This document shows positions 7,758 to 26,247 of a stretch of DNA of 64,000 nt, in pieces. This DNA is from an uncultured Clostridia bacterium. GTDB lineage: Bacteria; Bacillota; Clostridia; TANB77; CAG-465. The stretch lies in NCBI GenBank assembly GCA_934130595.1, contig CAKOYF010000001.1, positions 68,290 to 132,289 of the forward strand. The letters run 5' to 3'. A program made the position numbers and the translations under genes. The first letter of the stretch is position 1; the number at the start of each line of letters is the position of its first letter. The notes under the pieces were generated by a model. That model was given only the letters and a program-made list of their open reading frames with translations. It searched no databases and was not told the origin of the DNA.

Positions 7758-10532
7758 TTATTGTATATCGTCGGCAGCTCTTGCATCAATATCATAAAGT
7801 ATAACTGTTCCTTTTACAAAATCATATAATTGTTGTGAATCAATTATCCATATTCCTTTTTCAAGTTGTATTCTTAAACTTGAATCTTTATTTACTTCTT
7901 GACCAGGATTTGAAAATCCTAAATATCCTTCATAATCCCACTGTGTTGTATTTACTGCTGAGCTTGCTGATTTATTAAGTGTATTGTATGATATTGTTTC
8001 ATTTAGTTTTGAATCATAACATGTAATCTCAAATTTTACACCAATATATCCATCTGTTAATGCATTTTGAATACTATCACCATTTTTTACAGCTATTGTA
8101 GTATTTGGTAGTTTAAATTCTCCAAACCATGTTTGAATGTAACCAGTATCATCTAGTGCCATCATATTATCTTTTAAGTAAAATTCACCTGAACTATTAC
8201 CAATATTTAAAGATTCTAATTTTTTAGATAAATATGATGTATTTGAAGCATATAGATCATTAGTATATCTACTTCCGTCATCTGGAGTAAAATATATATT
8301 ATATCCGCTTCCAACAAACTTTTTATATTTATCTGTTTCATCTTTATAATATAATGTTATATCTTTAATAACCTGAGAACCATCCTTAGATAAATAGTAA
8401 TACGTTGGTTTTATCTTTATTTTTCTAGCTTCTACACCACTATTACTTGGCATATAATATCCACTTGTTTTTACATCAAAGGAAAATCTATATCCAAGTT
8501 TTGGAGCATTTATATATCCTGCTGTAGTATGTTTATATGGACCTAATGGTAATGTTCTAGTTGAAGTTGTTCCGTTTATTTTTAAATTATTTCTATCTAC
8601 TAATGCTGTATATTCTTTATTTGCATTTGTATATATGTACATTCTTCTAATTCCAGAATAATATCCAGAGTTCTTATCTAAAACATTGGTATCTGATTGT
8701 CTAAATGCACTCTTATATGCTAAATCTGAGCAATCTGATATTTTAAAATCATATATTTTAGATGCTGTTCTTACTGCTATTGTTTTCATTGCAAAATAGT
8801 ATCCATCACCATACATCTTCACTCCTCTTGTGTAGTTTGAGTCTGTATGTGATTCAGAAAACTCAATATCGTTTGAAAAATTAGCAGTATTATCTCCACT
8901 ATCTGTTATATATTTTCTTGATGTAGCATCTTGTGTTTTATCCATCTGAATAGCTACTTCTTGATCTACCACATTATATAGCAATTCATCTGATGGCATA
9001 TTAGAAGCAGAAGCAAGTATTACTATTTTATGATTAGAAGAATCTCTAGATAATGTTTCATTAGGTGCTACTTGTCCTCTAAAATATGTATATCCATCAT
9101 TATATTTTGCTTGGTTAGTCATTCTTATTGCTGTACCTTTAGTATATGTTTTTCCATTATGTACAACATCAAAATCAAAAATCAAATAATAGTAGTTAAC
9201 AAATGCAGCTTTTTGATTTGCAGTTATATTATTGTAATATGTAAAATCTAAATCTCCACAGCTAAGCTTTATTTCAAAGTTTGCATCATCTGCAAGTATT
9301 ACAGTTGATGAATTTACAACAGAATGATCAATTGTTGAGTTACTTGTAGTTGTAATTTGTGGATCATTTAATTTTACAGGAGTATATACATTTATATAAT
9401 GTTCATTAGTTGATTCATATTCTCTTGTTCCACCATATTCACCATTTAAAACATTATATTCTTGATATATAACATTTCCTTTAGCACTTCTTAATCCATT
9501 TAATACATTTGATTGTATTATAATGTTTGCTAAGAAGTCATCTGCTCCTGCATCATCCCCATCTGTTTTATCTATATCATTTTTTCCAGGGATAACTGTA
9601 GTCTTTTTATCATTATAATTGCTAACTAATCCATTTAATATATCTGTTATACTATCTTTATTATTTATAAATATTGGAGATGTGCTTCCAATTCCTGTTA
9701 TAGCTGCTGCAGGATCAGTATTATCTACCAATTTTCCTGTTATTTCTATTTGACCATTAGTACCTTTATGTACTGATTCAGAAGATTTTAAGTATGCTTC
9801 ATTAAGTCTATACACTACAAAGTTACTAACTTTATAGCTTACCTTACCGTCTTCCATAACCTTTTCGTATGATAAATCTTTTATAACATATTTAGGTGTT
9901 TTAAAATATGGTTTTAAAGATCCACCAGCTGGTATATATGTAACATTAGATTGTAATCCTGCATCGTTTCCATTCCAAACGTTAGTATTACTATATAGCT
10001 TTGGAGATATGTTGTCTACAACATCTTCATTATAATAAAAATCTATTATTGTTACATCATTATTGTTAGACTGTATTGTTGTATATTGAGCATTTGCTTG
10101 ACTATTATTATATTCAACATCTAATTGTGATGTACCCGCTCTTACTGATGCTTTTTTTTGCTCCATTACTGAATATGCATCATCTAAGCTTGGCATAGTA
10201 CATATGTTATATCCCAAATAACTATATTTTTTACCATCAACTTGCATAACAAGTGTTTTAGTAATTTCCATAGTTGCTGAGACTGAATAATTATAATATT
10301 CACTATATGATATTTCAGCATCATCTGATGTAGAATTATTTAATAGTGTACTTTTTCCAGAAGACTCTTTTACTTCTTGAGTATTATTTTGCAATCCATT
10401 TATTATTTCACCATTTGCCTTATTTATATGTCTTACAAAAACTTCTCTACCATTTTCATATGCGTATATTTTAGGTGCTAATATAATGTTAAAAGCAATA
10501 AGCAAGAAGATTAATATTACTTTTTTATTCAT
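7758..10532 (-). CDS. Large secreted protein, 924 aa, Sec signal peptide, no LPXTG. Last gene of the pilus-like operon; candidate tip adhesin or secreted cargo.
   Basis: ATG with an AAGGAGGA RBS. Signal peptide MNKKVILIFLLIAFNIILAPKIYA. Translationally coupled to the upstream gene (stop at 10534). Confidence 0.5.
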   Translation of the reverse strand: MNKKVILIFLLIAFNIILAPKIYAYENGREVFVRHINKANGEIINGLQNNTQEVKESSGKSTLLNNSTSDDAEISYSEYYNYSVSATMEITKTLVMQVDGKKYSYLGYNICTMPSLDDAYSVMEQKKASVRAGTSQLDVEYNNSQANAQYTTIQSNNNDVTIIDFYYNEDVVDNISPKLYSNTNVWNGNDAGLQSNVTYIPAGGSLKPYFKTPKYVIKDLSYEKVMEDGKVSYKVSNFVVYRLNEAYLKSSESVHKGTNGQIEITGKLVDNTDPAAAITGIGSTSPIFINNKDSITDILNGLVSNYNDKKTTVIPGKNDIDKTDGDDAGADDFLANIIIQSNVLNGLRSAKGNVIYQEYNVLNGEYGGTREYESTNEHYINVYTPVKLNDPQITTTSNSTIDHSVVNSSTVILADDANFEIKLSCGDLDFTYYNNITANQKAAFVNYYYLIFDFDVVHNGKTYTKGTAIRMTNQAKYNDGYTYFRGQVAPNETLSRDSSNHKIVILASASNMPSDELLYNVVDQEVAIQMDKTQDATSRKYITDSGDNTANFSNDIEFSESHTDSNYTRGVKMYGDGYYFAMKTIAVRTASKIYDFKISDCSDLAYKSAFRQSDTNVLDKNSGYYSGIRRMYIYTNANKEYTALVDRNNLKINGTTSTRTLPLGPYKHTTAGYINAPKLGYRFSFDVKTSGYYMPSNSGVEARKIKIKPTYYYLSKDGSQVIKDITLYYKDETDKYKKFVGSGYNIYFTPDDGSRYTNDLYASNTSYLSKKLESLNIGNSSGEFYLKDNMMALDDTGYIQTWFGEFKLPNTTIAVKNGDSIQNALTDGYIGVKFEITCYDSKLNETISYNTLNKSASSAVNTTQWDYEGYLGFSNPGQEVNKDSSLRIQLEKGIWIIDSQQLYDFVKGTVILYDIDARAADDIQ

Positions 10533-11888: not shown

Positions 11889-13067
11889 CTATGGATTACA
11901 AATTGGACAAGGATAAAATCCTGTAAATGTTGTCTTAACACCATTTAGCGTACCTGTTGTTACAGATGTAGCCGCTTCTTGTCTAGATGTAACATATCTA
12001 GGTGACATATTCTTTATCTCACTTAGTTTATATTCTGGACAATTTATATCCTTATGATAAAGATTCATTTTTATTTGTGAATCTTTATTCGGTACTGTAA
12101 AGTAATATCTAGTTTTATTTTCTAATGTAGCTGTTCCAAAAGCTTTCGTATTTAGATATTTATTACCTACAGAAATACCTTGTACAAAAGCAATTATTCC
12201 TACACCATCTACCATGTTATATAGTTCATCTTCTGTTGTTGCTGGAAAAGAAAAAGAATATACCACTCCAGCTTGTCTAGCATATAGATTATTTTCATTA
12301 ACAGCATAAGACATCTCATTAGATACTACTTCTGCTATTATTGATGACCTTGTATCTTTCAAATGTGTTACTATTTGTGATTTTAAACTTTGTTTTACCT
12401 CACTATCTACAACACCTGCTACTAATTCATCATTATTATTTGAATCTCCTAAATAAAAACTTTGAGCTTCTATATCTTCATCATATAAGTAATTGTATCC
12501 TCTATGTGTTACTCTATCGTCCATAGTAAACTCAATAGTATGAATTGATACAACATTAGAAGTTTCTGTACCAGGTACCATCTTATACTCTCCATTTGAT
12601 CTTACAATTGAATATGTATATGTAAAATATCTTTTAGGTTTTAAAACTCTTTGAACTGAACTTGTACCATCACTAGCATTTACTGTTTCGTTTTTAGATA
12701 CTCGTACACCATCATATTCAACTACGGCAACAGCAGGAACAAAAAGGTTAAAATATGATTCTGCTGTTTCATTACCTTCTATTCCTAATGTATTATACAT
12801 AGCATTAAAGAAAGAATCTACTCCAACTTTTGCATTTACGTTTATCTTTTTATTGTTTGAATCTGAATATCCATAGTCTATGCTCTTATCTTGGCTTTCT
12901 ACTTGTTTCATTTCATATGCTGCATCTTCTAGAGCTGAATCTATAACTCTTTGATAATACATTTCCATTTCTTCAGCTTTTATTGTAAATGTAACATTGA
13001 TATATAACACTAACATAAACGGTAATATTATTGCTATAAAAACTAAAGCAAAATCTGTTATTTTCAC
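11889..13067 (-). CDS. Membrane-anchored extracytoplasmic protein, 392 aa, N-terminal TM.
   Basis: GTG start with an AGGAGGTG RBS. N-terminal hydrophobic segment ALVFIAIILPFMLVLYI. Confidence 0.5.
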   Translation of the reverse strand: MKITDFALVFIAIILPFMLVLYINVTFTIKAEEMEMYYQRVIDSALEDAAYEMKQVESQDKSIDYGYSDSNNKKINVNAKVGVDSFFNAMYNTLGIEGNETAESYFNLFVPAVAVVEYDGVRVSKNETVNASDGTSSVQRVLKPKRYFTYTYSIVRSNGEYKMVPGTETSNVVSIHTIEFTMDDRVTHRGYNYLYDEDIEAQSFYLGDSNNNDELVAGVVDSEVKQSLKSQIVTHLKDTRSSIIAEVVSNEMSYAVNENNLYARQAGVVYSFSFPATTEDELYNMVDGVGIIAFVQGISVGNKYLNTKAFGTATLENKTRYYFTVPNKDSQIKMNLYHKDINCPEYKLSEIKNMSPRYVTSRQEAATSVTTGTLNGVKTTFTGFYPCPICNP

Positions 13068-13078
13068 CTTTTCACCTC

Positions 13079-14083
13079 CTATATCTCTGGTATAGTAATT
13101 GAACTATTTATTTTTATTACTATTTCTTGTGAACTTGCACTTGCATTTTTAGAGAATTTTCCTTGAATAACATTAGCTGGTAAGAAACATTTAAAATTAT
13201 TGTATTCATTATTTAAGAAATATGTCTTACTCTTAGTGTCATCTAATGTAAATTTAACTATATATTCTCCCTCACCACTTTCTTCAATTGAAGAAGGAGA
13301 TACAAAGCAATTAGGTGCTGTTCCCACAAGTCTTATATTATCTCTTATTTTTCCTACAAGATTTGTATCGTCTGCATTTAATATTTGAACTTTGAATGTT
13401 AAAATTCTATCTTTAGCAACATCAAAACTATATTCTGGATTTCCATTTACATTTGGCTCATTTCCATCTTGTAAATTTATTTTAATCAATATATCACTTT
13501 GATATAATTGGCTTATTTCTGTGTTTTCCCAGTTGTTATTTTTAATAGTTGCTCCATAAGTAATGTTTATTTTTTCCTTACTTGCTCCTCCTACTATAAC
13601 ATTTAATAATGAAGAAGCCATTGTTGTATTAGTATTTTTTACTGTAACATAAAACTTATCTCCTACATCAAGGAAAAAAATATCATTTTTCAAACTATTG
13701 TCTTTGTCTATTATATTACTTGTTTTTCCAGTCTCATCATTAAAAATATCCTTGTTATAATATGATTTATACTGTTCTACATAAGTTTCATTTCCTTCAT
13801 CTGGATTAGTATTTGAAGGATCTACTGTTAATACTTTCTTTTTAGCCTCAACTTGAATATCATATGAGTTTCCAGTTGTACCAAGTCTTTGTATAAATTT
13901 ATCATACATATCTTGGTCTATATAACCATTTTGCGCTACTTCATCTACAAACATTGTAACTGTTTTTAAAGTTAAGTTATATGACATATCATCTTGTCTT
14001 TCAAAATAGTTATATAAAGGAAGAAGTACTAATAATATTACTAAAAATATTACAGCCACAATCATACTAAGTGTATCCTTCAT
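13079..14083 (-). CDS. Large pilin-like (pseudopilin) protein, 334 aa; paralogue of 14992..16563.
   Basis: ATG with an AAGGAGGA RBS. N-terminal hydrophobic helix IVAVIFLVILLVLLPLY, then the shared motif ..DDMSYNLTLK...NGYI..DMYDKFIQRL..T.NSYD seen in 14992..16563. Confidence 0.5.
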   Translation of the reverse strand: MKDTLSMIVAVIFLVILLVLLPLYNYFERQDDMSYNLTLKTVTMFVDEVAQNGYIDQDMYDKFIQRLGTTGNSYDIQVEAKKKVLTVDPSNTNPDEGNETYVEQYKSYYNKDIFNDETGKTSNIIDKDNSLKNDIFFLDVGDKFYVTVKNTNTTMASSLLNVIVGGASKEKINITYGATIKNNNWENTEISQLYQSDILIKINLQDGNEPNVNGNPEYSFDVAKDRILTFKVQILNADDTNLVGKIRDNIRLVGTAPNCFVSPSSIEESGEGEYIVKFTLDDTKSKTYFLNNEYNNFKCFLPANVIQGKFSKNASASSQEIVIKINSSITIPEI

Positions 14084-14098
14084 TTTATTCCTCCTTTT

Positions 14099-14563
14099 TT
14101 ACCACTGCTCTTCAAGTTCTTCATCTGTAGCTTTTATTATATTTATATAAGTTGTATTTTCATTAGTGCTCTTATCTACAGTAAGTATATATTTATTATT
14201 CATACCAATCTTATTTATTGCCTCTTTATATGTTAAAGTTTTGCTATCTAACATAAGTGGTGTTTCATTTTTTGTTGATAAATTAATATTTACCACAACA
14301 TCATTATTAACAGTATCGTCTGAATATCTGTCTTTTTTTATATAATTATAATAATACGATAAAACTTCTTGTCCTGTTAAAATCAAGTGCCTATTTACTT
14401 CTCCTGTTACAGTTACTGCATCATTAGATTGCTGATGCATGTAATCATAAGCTTCATCTGTATAATTCATCAGCGATGAAAATAAGAAAATAGTTAAAGA
14501 TAAAGCTATAACAAAAATCATAGTATATATACCAATGTAAATAGCCTCATTTGCATTTTCCAT
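14099..14563 (-). CDS. Small pilin-like protein, 154 aa, class-III-like signal peptide.
   Basis: ATG with an AGGAGGTG RBS. N-terminus MENANEA|IYIGIYTMIFVIALSL. Confidence 0.5.
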   Translation of the reverse strand: MENANEAIYIGIYTMIFVIALSLTIFLFSSLMNYTDEAYDYMHQQSNDAVTVTGEVNRHLILTGQEVLSYYYNYIKKDRYSDDTVNNDVVVNINLSTKNETPLMLDSKTLTYKEAINKIGMNNKYILTVDKSTNENTTYINIIKATDEELEEQW

Positions 14564-14574
14564 ATTTTCACCTC

Positions 14575-14979
14575 CTATATTTTAGTAAAACTAATTTTTG
14601 TTTTCATTAATCCATCATATTCAACTTCTTCAACTTTTGATTTATATTTGTCTTCATATTTTAAAATGCCATTATTATATTGGTCATTTAGATAATTTAT
14701 TCCATTTTCATCATTAACGCTAAATCCATTGTATTCAACTACAACTAAATTTTCTTTGTAATATTTATTTGCACAATTTATTACATCTAGTCCTGTAACC
14801 TCTGTGTTATCATAAGAAGCATACTTTCCAAATCTAGCTGTTATAGATGTGTCTGTTGAGTTTACTTGTTTATATACTCCTTTCATTTGGGAAAATATAA
14901 ACATTATTCCTGAAATTATAATAACTGTTACAAATATTCCAACGCCAAACATTAATGCTCTATTTGCTGATTCTCCCAA
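14575..14979 (-). CDS. Small pilin-like protein, 134 aa, class-III-like signal peptide.
   Basis: TTG start with an AGGAGGA RBS. N-terminus MGESANRA|LMFGVGIFVTVIIISG. Confidence 0.5.
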   Translation of the reverse strand: MGESANRALMFGVGIFVTVIIISGIMFIFSQMKGVYKQVNSTDTSITARFGKYASYDNTEVTGLDVINCANKYYKENLVVVEYNGFSVNDENGINYLNDQYNNGILKYEDKYKSKVEEVEYDGLMKTKISFTKI

Positions 14980-14991
14980 ATGTTTTTCCTC

Positions 14992-16563
14992 CTATTCTAT
15001 TCCATATCTTTGTTGATCTATTTTAAAGTTTTCTTTTATTTCTTCTTCTGTTAAAGCTCTATCGTATATTCTTACACAATATATAGTTCCTTTAAATTGA
15101 GTATTAGCACCAGCGCCTGCAAGTGGACTTCCACCAATTACTAAGTTAGTGCCTGTTGCAGCATTTACCATTTCAGTATTAAATGGTATACCATCAACAT
15201 TACCATTAATTCCTAATAATTGTGCACTAGTTTCATATGCAAATTTATCTCCACCTAAAGTTAAGTCCATCTTTCCTACAGATCCAGCTATTGAATATAT
15301 TTTATTAGCTTGCATTATTGTACCATCTGAAACAACTGAAGATAAATTATTTCCTGTTTTATTTGTATAAACATCAAAAGATATTTTTCCTCTTTTTGAG
15401 ACACTTGTAGAATTTAATTGGTTAAATACTATTCCAGCGCCTCCATTATTTAAGCAACTTACTATAGATTGTTCTGAAGTGTCAGGATCTGTTACACTAT
15501 CTAACTTCATTACAACTTCTATAGTCATCTCTGAGAAATTAAATTCTTTTAATGATACATACTCTTTTCCTGTAAAATGTAATCCATTGTATATCCATCC
15601 AGATTCATCATTAAAATCAAAACCAGATAATGTGGCATTATTTCCATTACCACTAAGATCTTTCCAAATATTAGCTGAATTTGAATGAACTGTTCCATCA
15701 TTATACTCACCATTTAATAGAACAACAAGTCCGTTTGTAATATATGAGTTAACTAAAGAACTTGTATTTTCAGAACCTGGTGTATTAGTGCTTTCGTTAT
15801 AGTTTTGGTTATCATCATTTACAGTCTTGTCTCTATATGTTTCAGCTTTTACAGTACCTCCGTAATTTACATATATTCTAGTATTATTTTGACTTGATGC
15901 TCCAAAAGTAATTAAATTATATATTACACTTGCCATAGTTGTATTTTTATTTTTTACTATTACGCTAAACTCGTCGCCTTCATTCATTGTATATACTTGA
16001 GTGTTACTTTCTGGCATATATATACTTGTAATTGCAGGTAAATTTCTAAAATCAATACCTTTATATACATCTAGTGATGTTTTTACAGTAAGAGTTCTAT
16101 CTGTTGAACTAATTACATCTAATATTTGCTTCTCATTATATTTTTTTTCAGATAAGTCATAAGCTAGTACTAAATTATTATATGTTCCTGCATTTACTCC
16201 TTCATTTACAACAATTTGGTTATTTTCATATTGTTCTTTATATAAATTATAATCAAATTTTGCTCTAATTGTAGATAAGTCATCTGTATATGAATATATA
16301 ACAGGATTATATTTTTTTGCTGTATGCTCCATATATACATCATAACTATTTTGAGTTACTGCTAGTTTTTTTATAAAATCACTGTACATTTCTGATGTTA
16401 TATAGCCTTTAGCATTAACATTATCAACAAAATCAGTTGTTATTTTTAGTGCTAAGGCATAAGATATATCATCTTTTTTTTCATAAGCTATATATACTGG
16501 CAATATAAAAAGTATAACAACAGCTATTAGTACTGAAACTACTTTTTGTAAAATTCCATCCAT
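14992..16563 (-). CDS. Large pilin-like protein, 523 aa, with a C-terminal LamG/concanavalin-like jelly-roll domain. Candidate lectin-type minor pilin or tip adhesin.
   Basis: ATG with an AAGAGGGG RBS. N-terminal helix VVSVLIAVVILFILPVY. The C-terminal half resembles a LamG-like domain (..WKDLSGNGNNATL.GF.F....W..NGL.F.G..YV...). Confidence 0.5.
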   Translation of the reverse strand: MDGILQKVVSVLIAVVILFILPVYIAYEKKDDISYALALKITTDFVDNVNAKGYITSEMYSDFIKKLAVTQNSYDVYMEHTAKKYNPVIYSYTDDLSTIRAKFDYNLYKEQYENNQIVVNEGVNAGTYNNLVLAYDLSEKKYNEKQILDVISSTDRTLTVKTSLDVYKGIDFRNLPAITSIYMPESNTQVYTMNEGDEFSVIVKNKNTTMASVIYNLITFGASSQNNTRIYVNYGGTVKAETYRDKTVNDDNQNYNESTNTPGSENTSSLVNSYITNGLVVLLNGEYNDGTVHSNSANIWKDLSGNGNNATLSGFDFNDESGWIYNGLHFTGKEYVSLKEFNFSEMTIEVVMKLDSVTDPDTSEQSIVSCLNNGGAGIVFNQLNSTSVSKRGKISFDVYTNKTGNNLSSVVSDGTIMQANKIYSIAGSVGKMDLTLGGDKFAYETSAQLLGINGNVDGIPFNTEMVNAATGTNLVIGGSPLAGAGANTQFKGTIYCVRIYDRALTEEEIKENFKIDQQRYGIE

Positions 16564-16564
16564 A

Positions 16565-17032
16565 TTATACCCCTCTTATTGTTATTACTTTAGATCCTAA
16601 ATCAGTATCTACATCTTCTACGCTAATTGTAAAATCCTGATTATCCATAATATATCTCAAAGCTCTATTATATGAGCTTTCTCTAATGTTCATTTCTTTT
16701 GAATCCATTACAACTGAATCTAATATTTGAATATTTCCATTTTTATCTAAATACTTAATATTATATGCATTAACGCTAACATTAACGTTATCCTCATAAT
16801 AATTAAAAAGATTAATTACACTAGTTCCTTTAATGTAATTTCCAGTATTACTCATAAGAAGAGTAGATTCAATATCATGTCTATAGATATTTCCAAAGTT
16901 TTTACCTGAACCAGCATTTTTTACTATATTTAAACTTGAATTAAAAAATATTATAATTGCTGATACAGTCATAACTCCAACTAATGTTGTAACACCTATC
17001 ATTATTGCTTTTGATAGATTGTCCTCATCCAT
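16565..17032 (-). CDS. Small pilin-like protein, 155 aa, class-III-like signal peptide.
   Basis: ATG with a GAAAGGAGGAG RBS. N-terminus MDEDNLSKA|IMIGVTTLVGVMTVSAIIIF. Confidence 0.5.
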   Translation of the reverse strand: MDEDNLSKAIMIGVTTLVGVMTVSAIIIFFNSSLNIVKNAGSGKNFGNIYRHDIESTLLMSNTGNYIKGTSVINLFNYYEDNVNVSVNAYNIKYLDKNGNIQILDSVVMDSKEMNIRESSYNRALRYIMDNQDFTISVEDVDTDLGSKVITIRGV

Positions 17033-17117
17033 TCTACTCTCCTCCTTTCGTTATATAAACATATGTTAAAGCATATATTTTGATACACTCTAAAATATGT
17101 CTATATATAATGTTCAA

Positions 17118-17143
17118 GGTATATAACTAAAAAATTATATACC
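17118..17143 (-). terminator. Intergenic stem-loop (9 bp stem) directly downstream of the first pilin gene. Possible partial terminator or attenuator.
   Basis: GGTATATAA-ctaaaaaa-TTATATACC. No clean U-tract. Confidence 0.3.
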
Positions 17144-17171
17144 CTGAAATTATTCATAATTTATATATCTT

Positions 17172-17660
17172 TTATTTTTCTCTAGTAAATAATATTCCTA
17201 ATACAACGTCTCCACTTGTGCTTTTAATAAGTTGTGCTTTATATCTGGCAGAAGCTGGTACATATGTAGAAGTGTTAGAGCTATCAGATAAAGTACTTAC
17301 TTTAGCTTGTGCATGACTTGAATCATAGCTTAAAGCTTTGTCTATTGAAACTGTTCCGTTTCCTCTAACTTTTCCTAGTTCAAGTATATCTCCACCAACA
17401 ATTGGTTGAACTTCAAGGATCATACTTTGATCTGTATTATATAATTGAACTGTAGAAACAACTTTTGCTCCTGTAACTACAACATCATCATATTCTTGTG
17501 TTAGTTGTTGTTGTAGTGCATCAGATAAATTTGTAACTTTGTTTGTTGCATTGTTAATTAAGTTTATAGCTGGATTAACTATTAACATTACAGCAGCTAT
17601 AATTAAAATTGTTACAAATAATCCAACACCTATCATTATTGCTTTTTGTGCATTATCCAT
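17172..17660 (-). CDS. Pilin-like protein, 162 aa, class-III-like signal peptide. First pilin gene after the platform gene, so a candidate major subunit.
   Basis: ATG with an AAGGAGGAATATAA RBS. N-terminus MDNAQKA|IMIGVGLFVTILIIAAVMLIV, archaellin-like (compare A.GIGTLIVFIA). Confidence 0.55.
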   Translation of the reverse strand: MDNAQKAIMIGVGLFVTILIIAAVMLIVNPAINLINNATNKVTNLSDALQQQLTQEYDDVVVTGAKVVSTVQLYNTDQSMILEVQPIVGGDILELGKVRGNGTVSIDKALSYDSSHAQAKVSTLSDSSNTSTYVPASARYKAQLIKSTSGDVVLGILFTREK

Positions 17661-17715: not shown

Positions 17716-19770
17716 CTAAAACGCCATTTGACTAAAATAATTTAACATTTGTAGTATACTTACTATTAATAGTGGTGCTACTAAATATCCACCTATTAGC
17801 AAGACCATAGGAGTAAATCCTAAAACCTGTCCTATAGAAGCTTTTCTTTTAACTAGATTTTCATTTGCATCTTTTCTCTTTTCATAGAAAAATGCTCTTT
17901 CTGTTTCTAACTCATCAAAAGCTGCTTTTACAGGTATTCTTGTTACAGCAGATTCCAATTGTTCAATTATTCTCTGGAAATCTTTGTTTGGAACTGAATC
18001 TTTTAGCTCTTCAAGTGCTTCTTCAGCTCCTGCTTCATAGTTATTTAAGCATGTTGCTATTGGTTCTCTAAATGCGTATGAGAATCTACATAGCCACTCT
18101 AATATTGTCTGTACATCTACTCTATCAATGTGCATAAGCATTAAAATTATTGACTGAAATTGCATTATTTCATTTTCTTTATCCATTTTTCTTACACTAT
18201 TTTTTATAGTTAAGATTAAATTTGGTATATGATATGCTATCACTGCAACACCTAATGCTATTAAAACATGCCAAAACTTAATATATGAATCATTTATTGT
18301 TGTTATTTTATCATAAATTCTATCTACAGCATCAGTATCAACAGTTCCTGTAGATTTATCTGTTAGACTTTCAGCTAATTCTTCTTTAGATACATTTTTA
18401 TTCTTGTATTTTTGAATATATCCTAAGTCAAATTTTGCTATTTCATCTGCTGCAGCTTGATCTTCTGTACTTAGTTTTCCAAGAGATAAGAACTCATTAC
18501 TTAGTTTTGTATAAGCTGCATTTTTAGTTATAATATTCATATTTAATATTAAAAATATTGTAAGTACAAAACCTATAAGTGCATAAGTTAATTTATTTAC
18601 ATATAGCCACTCTATGGTTAAATATGAATTTGTATCTTTTATTAAATTAACTTCTTTTTTATATTTAGCTGTATGTTGCCTTGTTTTAAAAGCATCTACA
18701 ATGGTTCTTACAAAATTTATTTTATATAATTTTTCTTGCCATTTTACTTTTGAAACTCTATCAAATTTTATTTCTTCTCCATCTTCTCTTAAAACTCTAA
18801 GTAAGATGTATGACATAAATATTGATATTATAATTAATGATTGCATCACAAATCCTATACTACTACTATAAAAATTCGATAGTGCAGCAAAGTTATTTGT
18901 AGCCCATGATTCAATAGGTTTAATAAATATAAGTGGTATAACAGCTATTACTGTTAAACTTCTAAAAGTATTTTTTAATTTGTCTTGTTTTAATATTTCA
19001 AGATATATTTCATTTAATATATTATTTAGATTTTTTAGGTAGATAGATGTATCTTCTATTTTTCTATCACCTAATTCATATGTTAAAAATGAAATTCCTG
19101 CAAATAATTTTAAGAATCTATTTGGAGCAGTATCATAATATCTTTCAAGCTCAACTTCTGGCTGATCAGATATTATTGCTTCTCTTATTCTTTTTAGTTG
19201 TGGAGCAATTTCTTTCTCACTCATTTCATCTATAGTATCAGATAATGCTTCATCAACCATTCCATGCTCATGAAAAGCATGTCTTAGTGTAGTAAACGCT
19301 TCTGGCATCTGTCTTAATATTTTATTTGAAACAGATGTAATTGTTATATCTGTAACTTTTTCTACGACAATAATAAGTCCTATCATTATTATTAATGTCA
19401 TATATAAATCATTTACTACATTTACAAATATTGCTAAAGCCACAAACATAACAATCAACGTCAAAGTCATTAGTCTACCTGTATTTCTTCTAAGTTCATA
19501 CTCAGAATAATCATTTGACATTTCATATTTTAGTCTTATTTTTTTAGCATAATATTTGATTAACGGCATTTTTACAAAAGTCATATACATTACTTGGTAT
19601 AATTTATCAAAAGTCTCTTTAAAATTAACTTTATTTTTTACAACTAATGTATCTTTTGCTTGTAAAATTGAATTGTTACTATACCTTCTTTTTAATACAG
19701 CATAATAAATTAACAAACTTGCAAGGCCAATTACAGATACAACAACTAATGCAATTGCTATATTTGTCAC
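17716..19770 (-). CDS. Inner-membrane platform protein of the GspF/TadB-TadC family, 684 aa. Fused two-domain architecture, as in archaeal TadC/FlaJ.
   Basis: GTG start with a GGAGGTG RBS, 5 nt after the ATPase stop. About 7-8 predicted TM helices arranged as two blocks, each followed by a large cytoplasmic domain. Confidence 0.6.
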   Translation of the reverse strand: MTNIAIALVVVSVIGLASLLIYYAVLKRRYSNNSILQAKDTLVVKNKVNFKETFDKLYQVMYMTFVKMPLIKYYAKKIRLKYEMSNDYSEYELRRNTGRLMTLTLIVMFVALAIFVNVVNDLYMTLIIMIGLIIVVEKVTDITITSVSNKILRQMPEAFTTLRHAFHEHGMVDEALSDTIDEMSEKEIAPQLKRIREAIISDQPEVELERYYDTAPNRFLKLFAGISFLTYELGDRKIEDTSIYLKNLNNILNEIYLEILKQDKLKNTFRSLTVIAVIPLIFIKPIESWATNNFAALSNFYSSSIGFVMQSLIIISIFMSYILLRVLREDGEEIKFDRVSKVKWQEKLYKINFVRTIVDAFKTRQHTAKYKKEVNLIKDTNSYLTIEWLYVNKLTYALIGFVLTIFLILNMNIITKNAAYTKLSNEFLSLGKLSTEDQAAADEIAKFDLGYIQKYKNKNVSKEELAESLTDKSTGTVDTDAVDRIYDKITTINDSYIKFWHVLIALGVAVIAYHIPNLILTIKNSVRKMDKENEIMQFQSIILMLMHIDRVDVQTILEWLCRFSYAFREPIATCLNNYEAGAEEALEELKDSVPNKDFQRIIEQLESAVTRIPVKAAFDELETERAFFYEKRKDANENLVKRKASIGQVLGFTPMVLLIGGYLVAPLLIVSILQMLNYFSQMAF

Positions 19771-19774
19771 TTTA

Positions 19775-21673
19775 TCACCTCCAAGCCATATCTAAGAATT
19801 CATCAAAAGCTTTTATATCTTCTGCAGACATATTATCTCTCATTGCTTTAATGTTTTCTTCGCTAATAGGATTTTTAAATACATATTTTCCATCAACAAA
19901 TTCTACGATGTTTCTATATGTATAGTTTTTACTTTGTGTCATATGTTGAAAATATTCAACAGCATTATCCATAAACTTGTCTAGTTTTTGATTTACATCT
20001 TTTACTTTTCTATAATCATTATTATATGTATATGTTTGCTCTAATGGAATACATTCTGTTATTCTTTCAATGTATCTAGTACCATCTACAGCTCTTTTTA
20101 AATGTATATCAAAGTTTATAACTTGAACAACCTGTACTTCTGCAACTTGTTCAGAATTGAACATTCCAATTTTTAATAATGAGTTTCTAAGTGATGTTAT
20201 TAAGTTTGGAAATGTCTTTGCATGGTGTGTAAATAATGTAAATTTAGATGCAACCTGTGCCATCTGAATCATCCAAGCAGCAACTGGATCAGTTGCAACC
20301 TCTCCTAATATGTTTACACCACCATCTGTTTTCTTTTGAACATCTAGTCCTTCTTGTCCTGTTATAGTATCTGTTTCTCTTAAAGATAAGATGTTATGAT
20401 ATGGATAAATTTTTCTTAAGTGTAATTCGAATGCAGTTTCCTGTACACGAATTGTTATTGTTGGATATAAGAATTTCATTATAGCCATCAATAATGTAGT
20501 TTTACCACAACCCTGCTCACCAGTTATTGCAGTAACTCTGGCTCCTCTAATTAAATATTTTAATAACTCTACAACATTTTCTTTATTTTCATGAACAAGT
20601 AATTGTTCAGGTGAAATTAATGTAGGTGGAGCAAATTTTCTAACAAAAAAAGCCCAAGATTCAGAGAAGTTTGGTCTAAGAACAACAACTCTGGAACCAT
20701 CTTTCATTTCATTTATTTTATAACCAACAGACTCAGATAACTGTCCTGGGTTATTATATTTGTATATGTTTTGACATACTCTTTTTAACTCTGCTTCACT
20801 ACCAAAAGATAAGAAAGATAAATATGTAGCTTTACCTTTATAGAATATCCATACAGAATCATATGACATTGGTATTTTAGCTTCATTCATTTGTGTTAAG
20901 TAATCATCAATATCACTTAACTGATCTAGGAATGATGGTGGAATACCTGATACACCACCTGATACACCATCAATATTCATATCTCTTATATCATCTACGA
21001 CGCTATATCCTTTATATTCTTGGTATATTCTTTGTACTACTATCTCTAGCTTGTCTTCAAATGAAAGTGTTTCAGTTGAAACTTCATTTGTAAATATATC
21101 ATCAATCTCTTTTGCTGTAATTACATATGAAGGTACTGTAGCATCAAATTCATATTTTGGATAATCTAGAGCGTACTTTGTTATTATCTTTGTTAAAGCT
21201 TCTGCTTTATATGTTTTCTTGTAAATATGCATTAATATTTCAAATTTATCTTGTGATGTTAATTCATTAAAGTTATTAAATGGAATTGCATAGTTAATAT
21301 TAAAGTTATTTACTTTATAATCATTCTTTAGCAAATCAAACATTAATGATTTTACATACTTTTTATCATTTGAATCAGCATATCCGGCACCTTTTAAAGC
21401 TCTCTTTAATTCATATTTAACATTTTTTCTTCTTTCAAATTCTTCTTCAGATAATGCTAAATCATACAAATTCATTCTAGTAATTTCATCAAATTGCTTT
21501 TTTATATAATTTTGCATAGTAGAAAGACTATATGTTGTCTTTTCTCTTGTTAAACTATCTTCTACCATTTGGTCTGCACCAGATTTTTTTACTTTGTAAT
21601 AGAAAAACGCTGCTACAAATGCTAATAAAAGAAGTATTAACAAAATATTAAATACAAATGCAACTGACATCAT
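19775..21673 (-). CDS. Secretion/pilus ATPase of the TadA/CpaF/FlaI type (VirB11 superfamily), 632 aa, with an N-terminal TM anchor.
   Basis: Walker A GEQGCGKTT, Walker B and a His-box (THHAKT). No tetracysteine zinc motif, so not a GspE/PilB type. N-terminal helix VAFVFNILLILLLLAFVAAFFYY. Confidence 0.7.
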   Translation of the reverse strand: MMSVAFVFNILLILLLLAFVAAFFYYKVKKSGADQMVEDSLTREKTTYSLSTMQNYIKKQFDEITRMNLYDLALSEEEFERRKNVKYELKRALKGAGYADSNDKKYVKSLMFDLLKNDYKVNNFNINYAIPFNNFNELTSQDKFEILMHIYKKTYKAEALTKIITKYALDYPKYEFDATVPSYVITAKEIDDIFTNEVSTETLSFEDKLEIVVQRIYQEYKGYSVVDDIRDMNIDGVSGGVSGIPPSFLDQLSDIDDYLTQMNEAKIPMSYDSVWIFYKGKATYLSFLSFGSEAELKRVCQNIYKYNNPGQLSESVGYKINEMKDGSRVVVLRPNFSESWAFFVRKFAPPTLISPEQLLVHENKENVVELLKYLIRGARVTAITGEQGCGKTTLLMAIMKFLYPTITIRVQETAFELHLRKIYPYHNILSLRETDTITGQEGLDVQKKTDGGVNILGEVATDPVAAWMIQMAQVASKFTLFTHHAKTFPNLITSLRNSLLKIGMFNSEQVAEVQVVQVINFDIHLKRAVDGTRYIERITECIPLEQTYTYNNDYRKVKDVNQKLDKFMDNAVEYFQHMTQSKNYTYRNIVEFVDGKYVFKNPISEENIKAMRDNMSAEDIKAFDEFLDMAWR

Positions 21674-21683
21674 ATCACCCCTC

Positions 21684-22496
21684 TTACTCTTTTATTTTTA
21701 ATATTTTTACTATTTCCTCTACTATTTCTGTTGCCCTTAGCATAAACTCACCATTATAATCTTTTGCTGGAGCGTTTATATTTCTGTATAAAAAGTCTAA
21801 GACATTACCATCATTACATGCATCTGTAAATAAATAGTTATGTGGAAGTACGTAACATGGTTCTGGAATTTTGTACTTTAATTTAACATTAAAAATATTA
21901 TACTTAGATCCAGACTCATAATCTCCTAAAACAAATATTTTTTGTTTATCTTTTAAGCTATCTATACTATTAAGTTTCTTTAATACGTTATTCAATTTTT
22001 CTATTTCCTGAGGAATTACACACACTATAATGTCTGACTGTTCCATTACTCTTATTGCACTATCATCAGTAGTAGTCTTAGGTAAGTCTATAAACACTAA
22101 GTCATATACTTCATCTGCATTTTTAGCAATTAGTGGCATGCTAATTAAATTTTCTCTTTTTTCTGTTGTTGTATTAGCTATGGCACTATAAAGTATATCT
22201 AATCTTCCTTTTAATACAGGCTTTGAATAGTTTTGAATTATGTCCGGTGACAATTTATTACTCTTAATTAAACGCATTATTGCATTCATACCAAGATTAG
22301 TATCATTAAAACTATTTGCATTTACTAAATCATCATACATAGTAAATGATGAAGCTATTTTTTTAGCATTTGAATTTGCATCTATTAAAAGAGAAGATGT
22401 TTTATGTGTTATTCCCATTAGAGAACTAATAGCAATAGCAGTATGTGTACATCCACTTTTTCCCTCTTCTGGACTCCAAAATACAATCTTTGCCAT
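21684..22496 (-). CDS. ParA/MinD-family ATPase, TadZ/CpaE-like, 270 aa.
   Basis: N-terminal P-loop-like SPEEGKSGCT and Walker-B-like DLVFIDLP. RBS AGGAGGAG. Confidence 0.5.
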   Translation of the reverse strand: MAKIVFWSPEEGKSGCTHTAIAISSLMGITHKTSSLLIDANSNAKKIASSFTMYDDLVNANSFNDTNLGMNAIMRLIKSNKLSPDIIQNYSKPVLKGRLDILYSAIANTTTEKRENLISMPLIAKNADEVYDLVFIDLPKTTTDDSAIRVMEQSDIIVCVIPQEIEKLNNVLKKLNSIDSLKDKQKIFVLGDYESGSKYNIFNVKLKYKIPEPCYVLPHNYLFTDACNDGNVLDFLYRNINAPAKDYNGEFMLRATEIVEEIVKILKIKE

Positions 22497-23204
22497 TTAA
22501 TTTCTCCTCCTTTTTATTTCTTTTAATACTTCTTTAGAAGAAACATCTCCTAATATTCTAGAAATATACTCACATAAGTACAATATATATGTTTTTGTAT
22601 GTTTTCTTAAATCTATAAGTCCACTGAATTGTGAATCTATATTAACCATCATATCTTGTTCATCAGTACTAATATCATAAACCTCATCTGTCCACTTAAC
22701 TGCATAATTATTTATTTTTTCTTCTAAATAATTTGTTGCTGCTCTAGATAAGTATGCTCTATATAAAATCTTTGAAAATACTAATTCTTTATCTGGATTT
22801 TCTTCTCTCATTTTATGTACAAGTTCATCATTTTTTGTTACTGATATAACATTAGTATCTATATACATATATGATTTATCTACTTGTAAATCTTTAAATT
22901 TAGCGTACGTATTTGCATCCTCTATATCTATTAAGACATAATTATATAATTTAAGATCTATATTCTTTTCACTTAAATATTTTTCTAATGAATCGTATGA
23001 ATCAAACCCAACTGCAAAGTCTATATCCGCATATCTAGTTACATATTCTGAGCTATTATCTATAGTTGGTACTATACATTTATATTTTTTATCTGATGTA
23101 GCATCAATTACTAATACAGATTTTCCCATAATATTTAAAGCTCTAGCTGTTGCAATTACAAAGTCATATTTATCTACATATCCATACATTCCAATTACTT
23201 GCAT
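22497..23204 (-). CDS. ParA/MinD-fold protein with a degenerate P-loop (likely pseudo-ATPase), 235 aa.
   Basis: N-terminus VIGMYGYVDKYDFVIATARALNIMGKSVLVIDAT aligns to ParA-family architecture but lacks the GKT/S lysine. Confidence 0.4.
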   Translation of the reverse strand: MQVIGMYGYVDKYDFVIATARALNIMGKSVLVIDATSDKKYKCIVPTIDNSSEYVTRYADIDFAVGFDSYDSLEKYLSEKNIDLKLYNYVLIDIEDANTYAKFKDLQVDKSYMYIDTNVISVTKNDELVHKMREENPDKELVFSKILYRAYLSRAATNYLEEKINNYAVKWTDEVYDISTDEQDMMVNIDSQFSGLIDLRKHTKTYILYLCEYISRILGDVSSKEVLKEIKRRRN

Positions 23205-23219: not shown

Positions 23220-24251
23220 CTATTTTCCTTCTAATAAGTTTTCTCTTTCAGTTTGTTGCATAATAATAGATTGTTGTGCTCCTGTAACTACATTTTCGTA
23301 ATCATCACTATTTTGTGATTTGTAGTTTTTGATTCCACTTTCTATTGTAGATCTTGACTCAGCATTTAATCTTGAAAGCTCAGTACTTGCATTTTTTAGT
23401 AAATATTGGTTTGATTTCATAGCACTCATAACATAAGTATTTGGTTGATAGTTTTGTGTTGTTTTTGTTGAAGCATTTGCAAAGTTTTTATATTTATATA
23501 TATAATCATATAATTTAGTTGCTGCTTCAGTTACATCCATCTTTTTAAGTTCATCCCAGTCTTTTTCAATAACTGTTTCAAGATATCCTTTTGTTTCACT
23601 TTCAATATCTGAAGATGTTTTAACTTGAGCATCACTATCTGTATATCTTAAAGCATATAATTTAGATCCACTGTTTAAGAAAGAATCAACTACTGCACTG
23701 TTTAATAGTTGGATTTCATCCTCAGATAATTTCATCCAGAAAGTTGTGTCATATATTTTATCTATGTTCTTTTGTGCAAGAACTATGTAATCTGTTCCAT
23801 TAGGATACATTATTCTAATATCTACAGTATCTCCCTCAACAAGATCACTAGGCATAAGAACTGTATTTATTTCAACGTCTCTTACATCAGCAGCTACAAC
23901 TTCATCACTTACCATATCTCCTGTAATAGGCACTTTTGCAGCTATATTATATTTTGCACTTAGTCCAACAACACTTCCTGAAGATACAACTCCTGTTGGT
24001 ACTGTATGATTGTTTACATTTACAGTTTCAATCATATCTGCAGTTATAATTTCTCCTTGTACAACGTTTCTTTTTAAAACAACTACTGGTGTAGTATAGT
24101 TTTTAATATAATTTTTGTTTGTTCCATCTTTATATGATTTTATAGTAAAGAAAGAAAATACACTTACACCAACGGCTACAACGATTCCAACACTAGCTCC
24201 AATCAATATACCTTGTATTGTTTTCTTTTTAATTTGACTCATTCCTATCAT
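23220..24251 (-). CDS. CpaB/RcpC-like pilus assembly protein (N-terminal TM plus SAF domain), 343 aa. First gene of the operon.
   Basis: TM helix ILIGASVGIVVAVGVSVFSFF followed by a SAF-like segment (VVVLKRNVVQGEIITADMIETVNV). RBS GGAGG. Confidence 0.5.
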   Translation of the reverse strand: MIGMSQIKKKTIQGILIGASVGIVVAVGVSVFSFFTIKSYKDGTNKNYIKNYTTPVVVLKRNVVQGEIITADMIETVNVNNHTVPTGVVSSGSVVGLSAKYNIAAKVPITGDMVSDEVVAADVRDVEINTVLMPSDLVEGDTVDIRIMYPNGTDYIVLAQKNIDKIYDTTFWMKLSEDEIQLLNSAVVDSFLNSGSKLYALRYTDSDAQVKTSSDIESETKGYLETVIEKDWDELKKMDVTEAATKLYDYIYKYKNFANASTKTTQNYQPNTYVMSAMKSNQYLLKNASTELSRLNAESRSTIESGIKNYKSQNSDDYENVVTGAQQSIIMQQTERENLLEGK

Positions 24252-24312: not shown

Positions 24313-24341
24313 AGTATATCTCTAAAAGCATAAAAAATCAA
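24313..24341 (-). promoter_or_regulatory. SigmaA-type promoter of the pilus-like operon (TTGATT-17-TATACT).
   Basis: Minus strand: -35 at 24336..24341, -10 at 24313..24318, with an AT-rich UP-like region upstream. Confidence 0.45.
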
Positions 24342-24430
24342 CCGCGAAAAAATAAAAAAAAGGTCACGTTTTGAATTGAAATATAAATGTAATTTATATG
24401 ACACTTGTTTGTATTTTATTTAGTTGTATT

Positions 24431-24473
24431 AAAAAAGAAAAAAATTTCTCTTATTGCTTTAAGAGAAATTTTC
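24431..24473 (-). terminator. Intrinsic terminator of the dacF-like gene.
   Basis: Perfect 12-bp palindrome AAATTTCTCTTA/TAAGAGAAATTT with a 6-nt loop, followed on the minus strand by UUUUUUUCUUUUUU. Confidence 0.7.
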
Positions 24474-25665: not shown

Positions 25666-25775
25666 ATATTCCACCTCAATATATTGTATTAAATAATATG
25701 TAAATTTATTAATTATATTGTATAAATATACAATCCTAGCTTTCAAATTTTTATACTAGTATATTGGAAATATAT

Positions 25776-25859
25776 ATAAATAAGGAGATATGATTTAACA
25801 TATCTCCTCTGTATTTCACAAACGTATATAAGACAAAAATTCCACAAATCTTATATACT
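25776..25859 (-). ncRNA. Candidate sRNA, unit A.
   Basis: Minus-strand promoter TTGAAT-17-TGaTATACT (-35 at 25889..25894, -10 at 25866..25871). Body has hairpin 2 (GUAUAUAAGA/UCUUAUAUAC) and terminator hairpin GGAGAUAUG/CAUAUCUCC (25784..25807) followed by a U-tract. Confidence 0.55.
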
Positions 25860-25895
25860 AACCATAGTATATCATAATTTTGCTTTCTATTCAAA

Positions 25896-25980
25896 TAAAA
25901 ATAAGGAGATATGATTTAGCATATCTCCCATGTATTTCACAAACGTATATAAGACAAAAAATTCACCAATCTTATATACT
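25896..25980 (-). ncRNA. Candidate sRNA, unit B.
   Basis: Promoter TTGAAC-17-TGcTATACT (-10 at 25987..25992). Terminator hairpin at 25905..25928 followed by a UUAUUUUUAUUU tract. Confidence 0.55.
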
Positions 25981-26015
25981 AACTATAGTATAGCATATTT
26001 CTGTTTTTTGTTCAA

Positions 26016-26101
26016 ATTAAATAAGGAGATATGACTTAACATATCTCCTCTGTTTATAACCAATGTATATAAGACAAAAAAATTCACCAATCTTATATAC
26101 T
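26016..26101 (-). ncRNA. Candidate sRNA, unit C.
   Basis: Promoter TTTACA-17-TGgTATACT (-10 at 26108..26113). Terminator hairpin at 26025..26048. Confidence 0.55.
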
Positions 26102-26132
26102 AATATTAGTATACCATATTTATATAAAAATG

Positions 26133-26210: not shown

Positions 26211-26247
26211 AATTGTATTATAACATAATTTTGTTTTTGGTTCAAAT

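Follow-up and report, generated by a model that had tools for sequence, protein, structure and literature searches.

In this work we have examined four genes for small pilin-like proteins in a stretch of 64,000 nucleotides (64 kb; hereafter the window) from an uncultured Clostridia bacterium, positions 68,290 to 132,289 of contig CAKOYF010000001.1. The GC content of the window is about 28%, nearly all of its genes lie on the minus strand, and among them are ribosomal protein genes, secY, ftsH, spo0A, spoIID and a mreB/mbl-type gene; neither tRNA genes nor Rfam matches were found in the window. The locus is found in identical form on contigs, up to 196 kb long, from human gut metagenomes, and its close relatives come from metagenome-assembled genomes that bear the label 'Clostridia bacterium' or 'Christensenellales bacterium'. 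The four genes belong to a 13-gene operon on the minus strand. It begins with a gene for a CpaB-like protein, followed by two TadZ-like genes, an ATPase gene and the gene of a 684-residue probable platform protein, continues with the pilin-like genes, interleaved with that for p523, and ends with those for p334, p392, p440 and p924. The pilin-like proteins are 134-162 amino acids long, the unrelated p523 gene sits between the second and the third of their genes, and all four reading frames are present with exactly the N-termini that an earlier note on this DNA had quoted:

17172..17660, minus strand: p162, the candidate major pilin, N-terminus MDNAQKAIMIGVGLFVTILIIAAV; first gene after the platform gene
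16565..17032, minus strand: p155, a putative minor pilin paralogue, N-terminus MDEDNLSKAIMIGVTTLVGV, with R/K-A followed by I/L-x-I-G; HHalign 98.6% to the p162 family
14575..14979, minus strand: p134, a putative minor pilin paralogue with a TTG start, N-terminus MGESANRALMFGVGIFVTVII; HHalign 99.4% to the p162 family over 128 columns
14099..14563, minus strand: p154, a putative minor pilin paralogue, N-terminus MENANEAIYIGIYTMIFVIAL; HHalign 95.0% to the p155 family over 134 columns

Paralogy and predicted fold of the pilin-like proteins

The earlier note regarded the four proteins as paralogues. Pairwise BLASTP among them gave weak similarity, mostly N-terminal, and we therefore built family alignments and profiles from 75 related genome loci (one genome per species in the genome scan) and compared these by HHalign. 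The pairs not listed above scored 98.8% (p155 and p134), 94.7% (p162 and p154) and, for the weakest pair, p134 and p154, 89.8% over 69 columns. With values of 89.8-99.4% between the family profiles the paralogy is borne out: the four proteins are true paralogues whose similarity reaches past the hydrophobic helix. Homologues of p162 share an unchanged MDNAQKAIMIGVGLF even where identity has fallen to about 40%, and the first 27 residues of the family, M[DE]NAQKAIMIGVGLFITIIIIAAVML, hardly vary over some 150 clusters (at 50% identity), the heads of which have diverged to about 40% identity. A near-invariant N-terminus combined with diverging heads is the pattern expected of a helix that serves as an assembly interface.

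The AlphaFold2 model of p162, made with 46 homologues, has a mean predicted local distance difference test score (pLDDT) of 83 and contains a helix at residues 3-57, followed by strands and two short helices. The structure prediction that had been proposed as a check of a lollipop fold thus gave a pilin-like secondary structure, and the model, an N-terminal helix of about 55 residues with a small beta head, is consistent with a pilin 'lollipop'. A Foldseek search of the PDB with this model gave nothing significant (best E 1.0), a viral structure library held no structural match, the profile search of the PDB with the pilin family gave no match, and Pfam, NCBIfam and PHROGs had no meaningful family for the four proteins, the 46 homologues or the plasmid homologues described below. 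Weak matches to His1_capsid and MacB_PCD were discarded as hydrophobic-helix noise.

Tandem duplication has left 2-4 copies of the candidate major pilin gene in 19 of 69 loci (L006, L025, L026, L028, L030, L032, L042, L056, L059 and L069 among them). The N-terminal helices of such copies are identical and their heads divergent, which suggests antigenic or functional diversification. The head, which takes up about positions 35-160 of the profile, is likewise found at the C-terminus of other proteins, there without the N-terminal helix, namely P0378 (residues 366-495), P0376 (157-280) and P0339 (71-192); one head-bearing protein has 496 amino acids and collagen repeats, which match phage tail-fibre families with E of 1e-17 to 1e-24. 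The occurrence of the head outside the pilins suggests that it is a portable surface-exposed or binding module.

A division into one major subunit, p162, and minor pilins, as the earlier note had supposed, fits the position of the p162 gene, its conservation and the terminator-like structure that follows it:

17053..17148, minus strand: two stem-loops 3' of the candidate major pilin gene, the first with a 16-pair stem (17148..17113), the second reaching down to about 17053

An imperfect hairpin after the first gene had been reported at 17118..17143. It is real and conserved across the lineage, but larger than described (17113-17148, together with the second stem). The 139-nt intergenic region after p162 folds with -39.6 kcal/mol (z = -8.0 against shuffles), and the stem AAGGTATATAA..TTATATACCTT recurs 3' of the p162-family gene in most related loci, where the median z of this region is -4.6 and 74% of the values lie below -2. 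In loci with tandem pilin copies the stem usually follows the last copy only; L032 has a strong stem after the first copy as well. The simplest reading of the hairpin is a partial terminator or an RNA-stabilising element, and, to judge from the conservation of its sequence, the stem could be bound by a protein.

The N-terminal signature

The polar leaders of p162, p155, p134 and p154 have 7, 9, 8 and 7 residues, respectively, and in each protein exactly 21 hydrophobic residues can be read from the conserved alanine to the first polar pair. Nearly all of the 147 library representatives of the p162 family start with MDNAQKA or a close variant of it; the exceptions are N-terminally truncated or share the head domain only. 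Alanine stands at -1 in 252 of the 268 members of the four families (92 of 94 for p162, 52 of 54 for p155, 62 of 67 for p134 and 46 of 53 for p154). Glycine at -1 was found in none of these 268 chromosomal members; one plasmid homologue has it. At position -2 three families have K or R and the p154 family has nothing but E, Q, D or T; in all four +1 is I/L, +3 is I/V/F/T, +4 is G/A and +5 is V/A/I/T. Glu or Asp at +5 does not occur in any of the four families. Tyr at +6 is confined to the p154 family, where 47 of 53 members have it; p154 itself has an acidic leader and Tyr at both +2 and +6. The leaders of the p162 and p134 families are neutral, those of the p155 family mostly carry a charge of -1 or -2 and those of the p154 family of -1 to -3; a neutral or acidic leader is atypical for a signal which obeys the positive-inside rule. 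The plasmid pilins start with MSTNASKALYFGAS, MGENARKALYMAVG, MNNASSALKVAAG and MGGSLSEGLRTVFA, and in them S-A or E-G precedes the hydrophobic tract. When they are included, a small residue followed by L/I is general and K/R at -2 is not.

Do these N-termini correspond to class III signal peptides? Such a signal is defined by a hydrophilic leader of 6-26 residues with a terminal glycine, about 21 hydrophobic residues and Glu at +5 (PMC4471445). The short hydrophilic leader and the 21-residue tract are found in our proteins, the terminal glycine and Glu5 are not; both of these exceptions are common in archaea (PMC4471445). Judged by their sequences, the N-termini would fit a class III signal peptide in an 'archaeal flavour', with Ala at -1, 21 hydrophobic residues and no Glu5. 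To this extent the archaellin-like class III signal postulated in the earlier note can be retained; it has to be corrected in that the leaders are not basic, the p154 family lacks K/R at -2 and the plasmid homologues have S-A or E-G. Similarly, the statement that the proteins lack the Glu5 and Tyr6 of Flp pilins is right for the G/xxxxEY motif and for Glu5, both of which are absent, and too broad for Tyr, given its presence at +6 in the p154 family.

The Flp/Fap model (PF04964) gave no Pfam match at E up to 10 among 46 members, and HHalign to the Rhizobium Flp reached 0.2%. Because both the defining motif and the profile of the Flp family were tested and neither was found, the pilin-like proteins are not Flp pilins. 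The wider comparison with Flp, TadE and archaellin profiles that had been suggested earlier gave a similar picture: among the four proteins and 46 homologues there was no match to the Flp_Fap, TadE, N_methyl or archaeal pilin models and a single one, with E of 0.23, to Arch_flagellin, so that the archaellin profile PF01917 does not describe them. With the type IVa pilins and Com pseudopilins of Firmicutes (PilA, ComGC) the proteins share a size of 130-170 amino acids, a leader shorter than 10 residues and the combination of a helix with a head. They differ from them in having neither G/FTLxE nor an N_methyl match; moreover, the locus has no PilM, PilN or PilO genes and its ATPase scores poorly to PilT, GspE and PilB.

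The Tad-like machine and its operon

The genes between the start of the operon and p162 are the following:

23220..24251, minus strand: CpaB/RcpC-like protein with an N-terminal membrane helix and a SAF domain (Pfam SAF 3.7e-8)
22497..23204, minus strand: small cytoplasmic protein, weakly TadZ/CpaE-like (family hidden Markov model (HMM), TadZ 0.006 and CpaE 0.049 in a 27-protein set)
21684..22496, minus strand: TadZ/ParA-like protein with a degenerate Walker A (family HMM 3.3e-9 against an annotated Tad-locus AAA ATPase in a small test set)
19775..21673, minus strand: TadA/CpaF-family traffic ATPase of 632 amino acids, with CpaF as its best solved relative
17716..19770, minus strand: polytopic membrane protein of 684 amino acids, a probable fused TadB-TadC platform (HHalign of the N-terminal half)

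When the ATPase was used as a single sequence to search solved structures, CpaF was found at 1e-8. A profile which included the plasmid homologues gave CpaF at 4e-14, followed by an archaeal GspE-like protein (1.6e-4), VirB11 (6e-4), FlaI (1.5e-3), PilT (0.017) and GspE (0.3). From these profile scores the motor is of Tad type, neither archaellum-like nor type IVa-like. Its match to Pfam T2SSE lies below the family cut-off, and its best NCBIfam match, a weak one, is the 'TadA family conjugal transfer-associated ATPase'. The ATPase and its plasmid homologues have in common an N-terminal extension of 270 residues without a family match. In this lineage the N-terminus carries a hydrophobic, membrane-helix-like segment, MMSVAFVFNILLILLLLAFVAAFFYY, which the plasmid homologues lack.

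The accessory proteins of Tad systems, TadZ/CpaE and RcpC/CpaB, have counterparts here as well. The CpaB-like protein matches NCBIfam pilus_cpaB at 8.9e-6, below the family cut-off, and its family HMM scored 2.3e-10 against annotated RcpC/CpaB in a small test set. The Thermobacillus composti homologue of the TadZ/ParA-like protein is annotated as ParA. The gene of the small, weakly TadZ-like protein is kept in all related loci and in three of four plasmid clusters; it is missing from that of Clostridium botulinum.

The 684-residue protein had no match in Pfam (T2SSF included) or among PDB sequences, and its AlphaFold model, derived from a shallow alignment of near-identical sequences, is unusable (pLDDT 38). 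Its N-terminal half, as a profile with the plasmid homologues, aligned with a TadB/TadC template end to end over 290 columns (HHalign 82%, E 1e-5). The C-terminal half gave a weak end-to-end alignment with TadC (P 0.005, 272 columns), and reversed-template controls for the two halves had E of 0.1-0.4, that of the N-terminal half being 0.1. These alignments suggest that the protein is probably a fused TadB-TadC platform. Database searches with the ATPase and the platform protein retrieved near-identical sequences only and no distant annotated relatives.

Among and after the pilin-like genes lie those of larger proteins:

14992..16563, minus strand: p523, membrane-anchored, with a C-terminal LamG/concanavalin-like domain (Pfam Laminin_G_3 1.6e-11)
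13079..14083, minus strand: p334, a paralogue of the N-terminal part of p523 (BLASTP 1.5e-28; HHalign 100%)
11889..13067, minus strand: p392, membrane-anchored, N-terminus MKITDF, without a leader (family alignment); present in all four plasmid clusters
10534..11856, minus strand: p440, a single-pass membrane protein kept in most related loci; no significant family match
7758..10532, minus strand: p924, a large secreted protein of 924 amino acids, with homology to the DUF5704 proteins encoded at the end of the plasmid clusters

Of these, p523 is a candidate adhesin or tip protein. Neither p523 nor p334 is related to the four pilin-like proteins, and in the plasmid clusters the p523 homologues have 169-184 amino acids. 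In the p392 family Thr4, Asp5 and Pro16 are invariant (MKITDF...LP), as is a C-terminal Cys motif (Cys343, GFYPCPICNP) which could bind metal or form disulfides. The N-terminus of p392 looks by eye like that of a mature TadE-like pseudopilin, a likeness that no profile backs. Pfam TadE (PF07811) matched none of p523, p334 and p392. HHalign of the larger proteins against TadE, TadG and DUF4320 templates reached at most 1.6%, and the pilin, p392 and p523 families had no HHalign relationship to Flp, TadE, TadG, DUF4320 or small C. botulinum Tad-like pilins; both comparisons used single-sequence templates and are of low power. The p924 family HMM matched the DUF5704 proteins of Paenibacillus polymyxa at 9.5e-30 and of T. 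composti at 8.6e-18. Our literature search found no paper on DUF5704 or on the pilin family.

The operon thus resembles the Tad/Flp (type IVc) systems, such as those of Caulobacter (CpaF) and Aggregatibacter (Tad), in its TadA/CpaF ATPase, its CpaB/RcpC-like SAF protein, its TadZ/ParA-like proteins and its probable TadB/TadC platform. Also as in Tad loci, several pilin-like genes come directly downstream, and after them, in the place of TadE, TadF and TadG, larger proteins with a membrane anchor are encoded. There are differences as well. The pilins of our locus have 134-162 amino acids and a globular head, whereas Flp pilins have 50-80 and consist of the helix only; they lack G/xxxxEY and match neither Flp_Fap nor TadE of Pfam, the probable platform is encoded by one fused gene, the locus is without tadV, and the ATPase has its 270-residue extension and, in this lineage, the membrane helix. 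A secretin is also missing, as expected with a single membrane. Imam et al. described in 2011 tad-like loci of Clostridia in which tadA is recognisable, the other genes are distant and no protein matches the bacterial prepilin motif (PMC3244431). By analogy, our locus may be of the same kind as these 'no Flp' loci, from which it differs, compared by description, in that they were reported with tadV and with their structural subunits unidentified (PMC3244431). A signature with Ala and without Glu5 would explain why motif-based pilin finders overlook the subunits.

Could the subunits instead be homologues of archaellins or archaeal pilins, acquired from archaea together with an archaeal-type machine? 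The archaeal type IV pilins and archaellins, the substrates of PibD, FlaK and EppA, are like our proteins in the short leader, the tolerance of Ala at -1, the missing Glu5, the roughly 21 hydrophobic residues and the beta-rich head; K/R at -2 is shared by three of the four families, and a G-V-G in the helix recalls archaellins too. Furthermore, a single-gene platform is the usual archaeal arrangement, and Tad systems overall descend from archaeal Epd-like pili (PMC6668835). Yet there is no detectable homology in sequence or fold, with neither a significant Pfam match to Arch_flagellin or archaeal pilins nor a PDB profile match; the leaders are neutral or acidic rather than basic, the glycine is at +4 and not at +3, and the locus has no archaeal accessory genes. 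The ATPase is far nearer to bacterial CpaF (4e-14) than to FlaI (1.5e-3) or the archaeal GspE-like protein, the CpaB-like and TadZ-like genes are hallmarks of bacterial Tad systems, and all taxon-labelled matches and all loci examined come from Firmicutes, most library matches being unlabelled. The resemblance to archaellin processing sites which the earlier note had pointed out does not, therefore, demonstrate kinship. We consider an acquisition from archaea very improbable and the likelihood of an archaeal ancestry of the subunits low.

Upstream of the operon a consensus scan detected a promoter:

24313..24341, minus strand: predicted operon promoter of sigma-70 type (TTGATT, 17-nt spacer, TATACT)

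The -35 and -10 hexamers, together with TTACA repeats, recur 5' of the cpaB-like gene in distant related loci. The TTACA-containing direct repeats lie at about 24365-24400, 5' of the -35 hexamer (for example AATTACATTTATATTTCA and TATTACAATAATATTACA), are kept in L005-L075 and look like a putative operator for some regulator. The operon is flanked by dac, spoIID and an M23 peptidase gene, and we considered a sporulation-specific role for it. That the promoter is of sigma-70 type and conserved argues against sporulation-specific expression; the contexts of the plasmid copies differ as well, and we set this idea aside. A gene for a PBP5-type D-Ala-D-Ala carboxypeptidase (24451-25746) lies directly 5' of the operon in most related loci, and plasmid clusters have NlpC/P60 or other cell-wall hydrolases nearby in its stead. 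These neighbours may possibly be tied to the passage of a filament through peptidoglycan. Just 5' of the carboxypeptidase reading frame, overlapping its annotated 5' end, is a tandem array of a 121-bp unit (25774-26281; 2.9 copies according to Tandem Repeats Finder). It has five palindromic hairpins, GAGGAGATATGTTAAnTCATATCTCCTT, about 120 nt apart and terminator-like on both strands.

Processing, spread and biological meaning

We propose that the four proteins form a type IV filament, with p162 as the major subunit and p155, p134 and p154 as minor ones, and that it is assembled by a highly divergent Tad-like (type IVc-related) machine, encoded in the same sigma-70-driven operon; we put the probability of this reading at roughly 0.6. 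We are highly confident that these are real genes, paralogous to one another, and that the Tad-like operon to which they belong is conserved; that the four proteins are filament subunits has, in our opinion, somewhat better than an even chance. According to this proposal, each subunit would be inserted in the membrane via its 21-residue hydrophobic helix, and the leader of 7-9 polar residues would probably be cut off after the conserved alanine by a prepilin peptidase whose gene lies in another part of the genome. With the fused TadB/TadC-like protein as its intermediary, the CpaF-like ATPase would then pull the subunits from the membrane and stack their N-terminal helices, with the beta heads pointing outward. 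The LamG protein p523, p334, p392 and the large DUF5704-like protein would likely be tip, priming or adhesive components, and the conserved stem-loops that follow the gene of the major pilin, which probably terminate transcription in part or stabilise the RNA, would keep the major-subunit transcript more abundant than the downstream one.

Several observations weigh against this proposal. Neither the window nor the 1.7 Mb of related loci yielded a prepilin peptidase of family A24, the charge of the leaders ranges from neutral to acidic, and K/R at -2 is absent from the p154 family. Moreover, the alanine at -1 is replaced by Phe, Pro, Val or Ser in a few homologues of the p162 family, and the assignment of the platform rests on one moderate HHalign score, the structure prediction being uninformative. 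By jackhmmer from the Rhizobium TadV and with the GxGDxK motif, which matches this TadV as a control, no tadV was found in the window, in the 79 chromosomal loci fetched or in the plasmid loci. This search covered the window and the fetched loci, and a peptidase may be encoded elsewhere in the genome; prepilin peptidases are often encoded apart from pilus loci, and tadV is treated as a possible 'loner' (PMC6668835). Since no peptidase is encoded nearby, cleavage at the marked bond is something that we infer, and we rate its position after the conserved alanine, a prediction from the sequence, at slightly less than an even chance. Signal peptidase I, whose gene lepB lies near the C. botulinum cluster (about 5 kb downstream of this plasmid copy), was also considered and rejected, as the site precedes the hydrophobic region and the residue at -3 is not small.

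Is it possible that the proteins are not cleaved at all? They would then be signal-anchored (bitopic) proteins which, with the ATPase and the membrane protein, form a short pseudopilus close to the membrane or a wall-spanning secretion or transfer device instead of a long adhesive pilus, the conserved N-terminus being an interaction surface and no processing site. The acidic leaders and the rare homologues with bulky residues at -1 keep this explanation alive, and the lack of a peptidase gene in all the loci searched, the leader of the p162 family, which is as conserved as the helix, and the location of plasmid copies near genes for a type IV coupling protein, a relaxase, a cell-wall hydrolase and a single-stranded-DNA-binding protein also speak for it. 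On the other hand, conservation in the three less conserved families peaks at the alanine and at G/A +4, as would be expected of a recognition site, and the hydrophobic tract, with exactly 21 residues, agrees with that of pilins, as does the model with its helix and head. That a strong hairpin of terminator type follows one subunit gene suggests that its product is a structural subunit with high expression, and the habit of prepilin peptidases to be encoded away from pilus loci (PMC6668835) weakens the argument from their absence. We think that uncleaved anchors are unlikely.

How widespread is the system? The pilin family is encoded in 75 loci, all from uncultured Clostridia or 'Clostridium sp. 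CAG' genomes, and each of them has the operon, whole or in part, in the same order; identities across these loci are 73-98% for the ATPase, 53-94% for the platform and 30-90% for the pilins. An exhaustive profile search found 1,132 pilin-family clusters (at 50% identity) with E up to 1e-3, and the family is abundant in human and animal gut metagenomes. The taxon-labelled matches, like every genome or plasmid locus examined, are from Firmicutes; most of the unannotated library matches are unlabelled. Full-length homologues of the ATPase (37-61% identity, more than 90% coverage) are present on plasmids of T. composti, Cytobacillus, P. polymyxa, Lysinibacillus, Butyrivibrio proteoclasticus and C. 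botulinum. We examined four plasmid regions, from T. composti pTHECO01 (L080), C. botulinum pFI1111E1 (L081), P. polymyxa pPPM1a (L082) and B. proteoclasticus pCY186 (L083). They have the same order of genes for a SAF protein, TadZ-like proteins, the ATPase, a membrane protein of 665-691 amino acids, small pilin-like proteins, p523-like and p392-like proteins and a large DUF5704-type protein. The family HMMs recognise products of these regions with 5.5e-25 to 1.8e-11 (pilin), 1e-51 to 1e-14 (p523-like), 7e-53 to 5e-15 (p392-like) and 2e-179 to 1e-66 (platform), and the genes so recognised are all annotated as 'hypothetical'. All components have homologues in the plasmid clusters except the p440 family and the upstream carboxypeptidase gene. 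The plasmid copies are flanked by GGDEF and HD-domain genes and lie near genes for a relaxase, a type IV coupling protein, a cell-wall hydrolase and a single-stranded-DNA-binding protein. Another C. botulinum plasmid, pRSJ10_1, carries a different, smaller Tad-like locus (L084, 12387-14561) with five small proteins which have KKGG-LSQLLSVV-type N-termini without Glu5/Tyr6; non-Flp signals may be common in the Tad-like systems of Firmicutes.

The presence of the full-length ATPase and the module on large plasmids of Thermobacillus, Paenibacillus, Lysinibacillus, Cytobacillus, Butyrivibrio and C. botulinum raises the question of whether the filament serves mobile elements in the first place, as a pilus for mating or aggregation; the chromosomal copy in the gut lineage would then be a domesticated or integrated form. 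In T. composti relaxase and coupling-protein genes lie less than 10 kb away (in P. polymyxa a relaxase-family gene only), and the weak best NCBIfam match of the ATPase is named 'conjugal transfer-associated'. However, the window locus lies among housekeeping and sporulation genes, between the carboxypeptidase gene and spoIID; many related loci have the same chromosomal position, genes for a relaxase, an integrase or a coupling protein are missing from the vicinity of the window locus, and the carrier plasmids are typed as non-mobilizable. The GGDEF and HD-domain genes beside the plasmid clusters point rather to adhesion controlled by cyclic di-GMP. This explanation seems to us quite unlikely, less probable even than uncleaved anchors.

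Returning to the proposed filament, we tentatively suggest, at somewhat less than even odds, that it represents a distinct, hitherto unrecognised family of type IV filaments of the Firmicutes (Bacillota), chromosomal in a Christensenellales-like gut lineage and mobile on the plasmids of spore-formers. Its characteristics would be globular heads, neutral to acidic leaders with Ala at -1 and no Glu5, a single fused platform and no cognate peptidase. If this is true, the subunits would be processed by an unknown or borrowed enzyme or assembled unprocessed, and the family could be a lineage which kept or regained archaeal-type features inside the bacterial Tad clade.

Tad pili are major colonisation factors which have been little studied in single-membrane bacteria. 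Some Gram-positive tad-like loci were reported in 2011 without an identifiable subunit (PMC3244431), and for one such system the present work names candidate subunits, describes the signature of their sequences and gives a complete list of its 13 genes. With the module on plasmids of the cultivable P. polymyxa M1, T. composti KWC4, B. proteoclasticus B316 and C. botulinum, its processing, assembly and function are directly testable. If the subunits are cleaved after an alanine without Glu5, or are not cleaved at all, the rules for finding bacterial pilins would widen, and either outcome would bear on how Tad systems diverged from archaeal pili.

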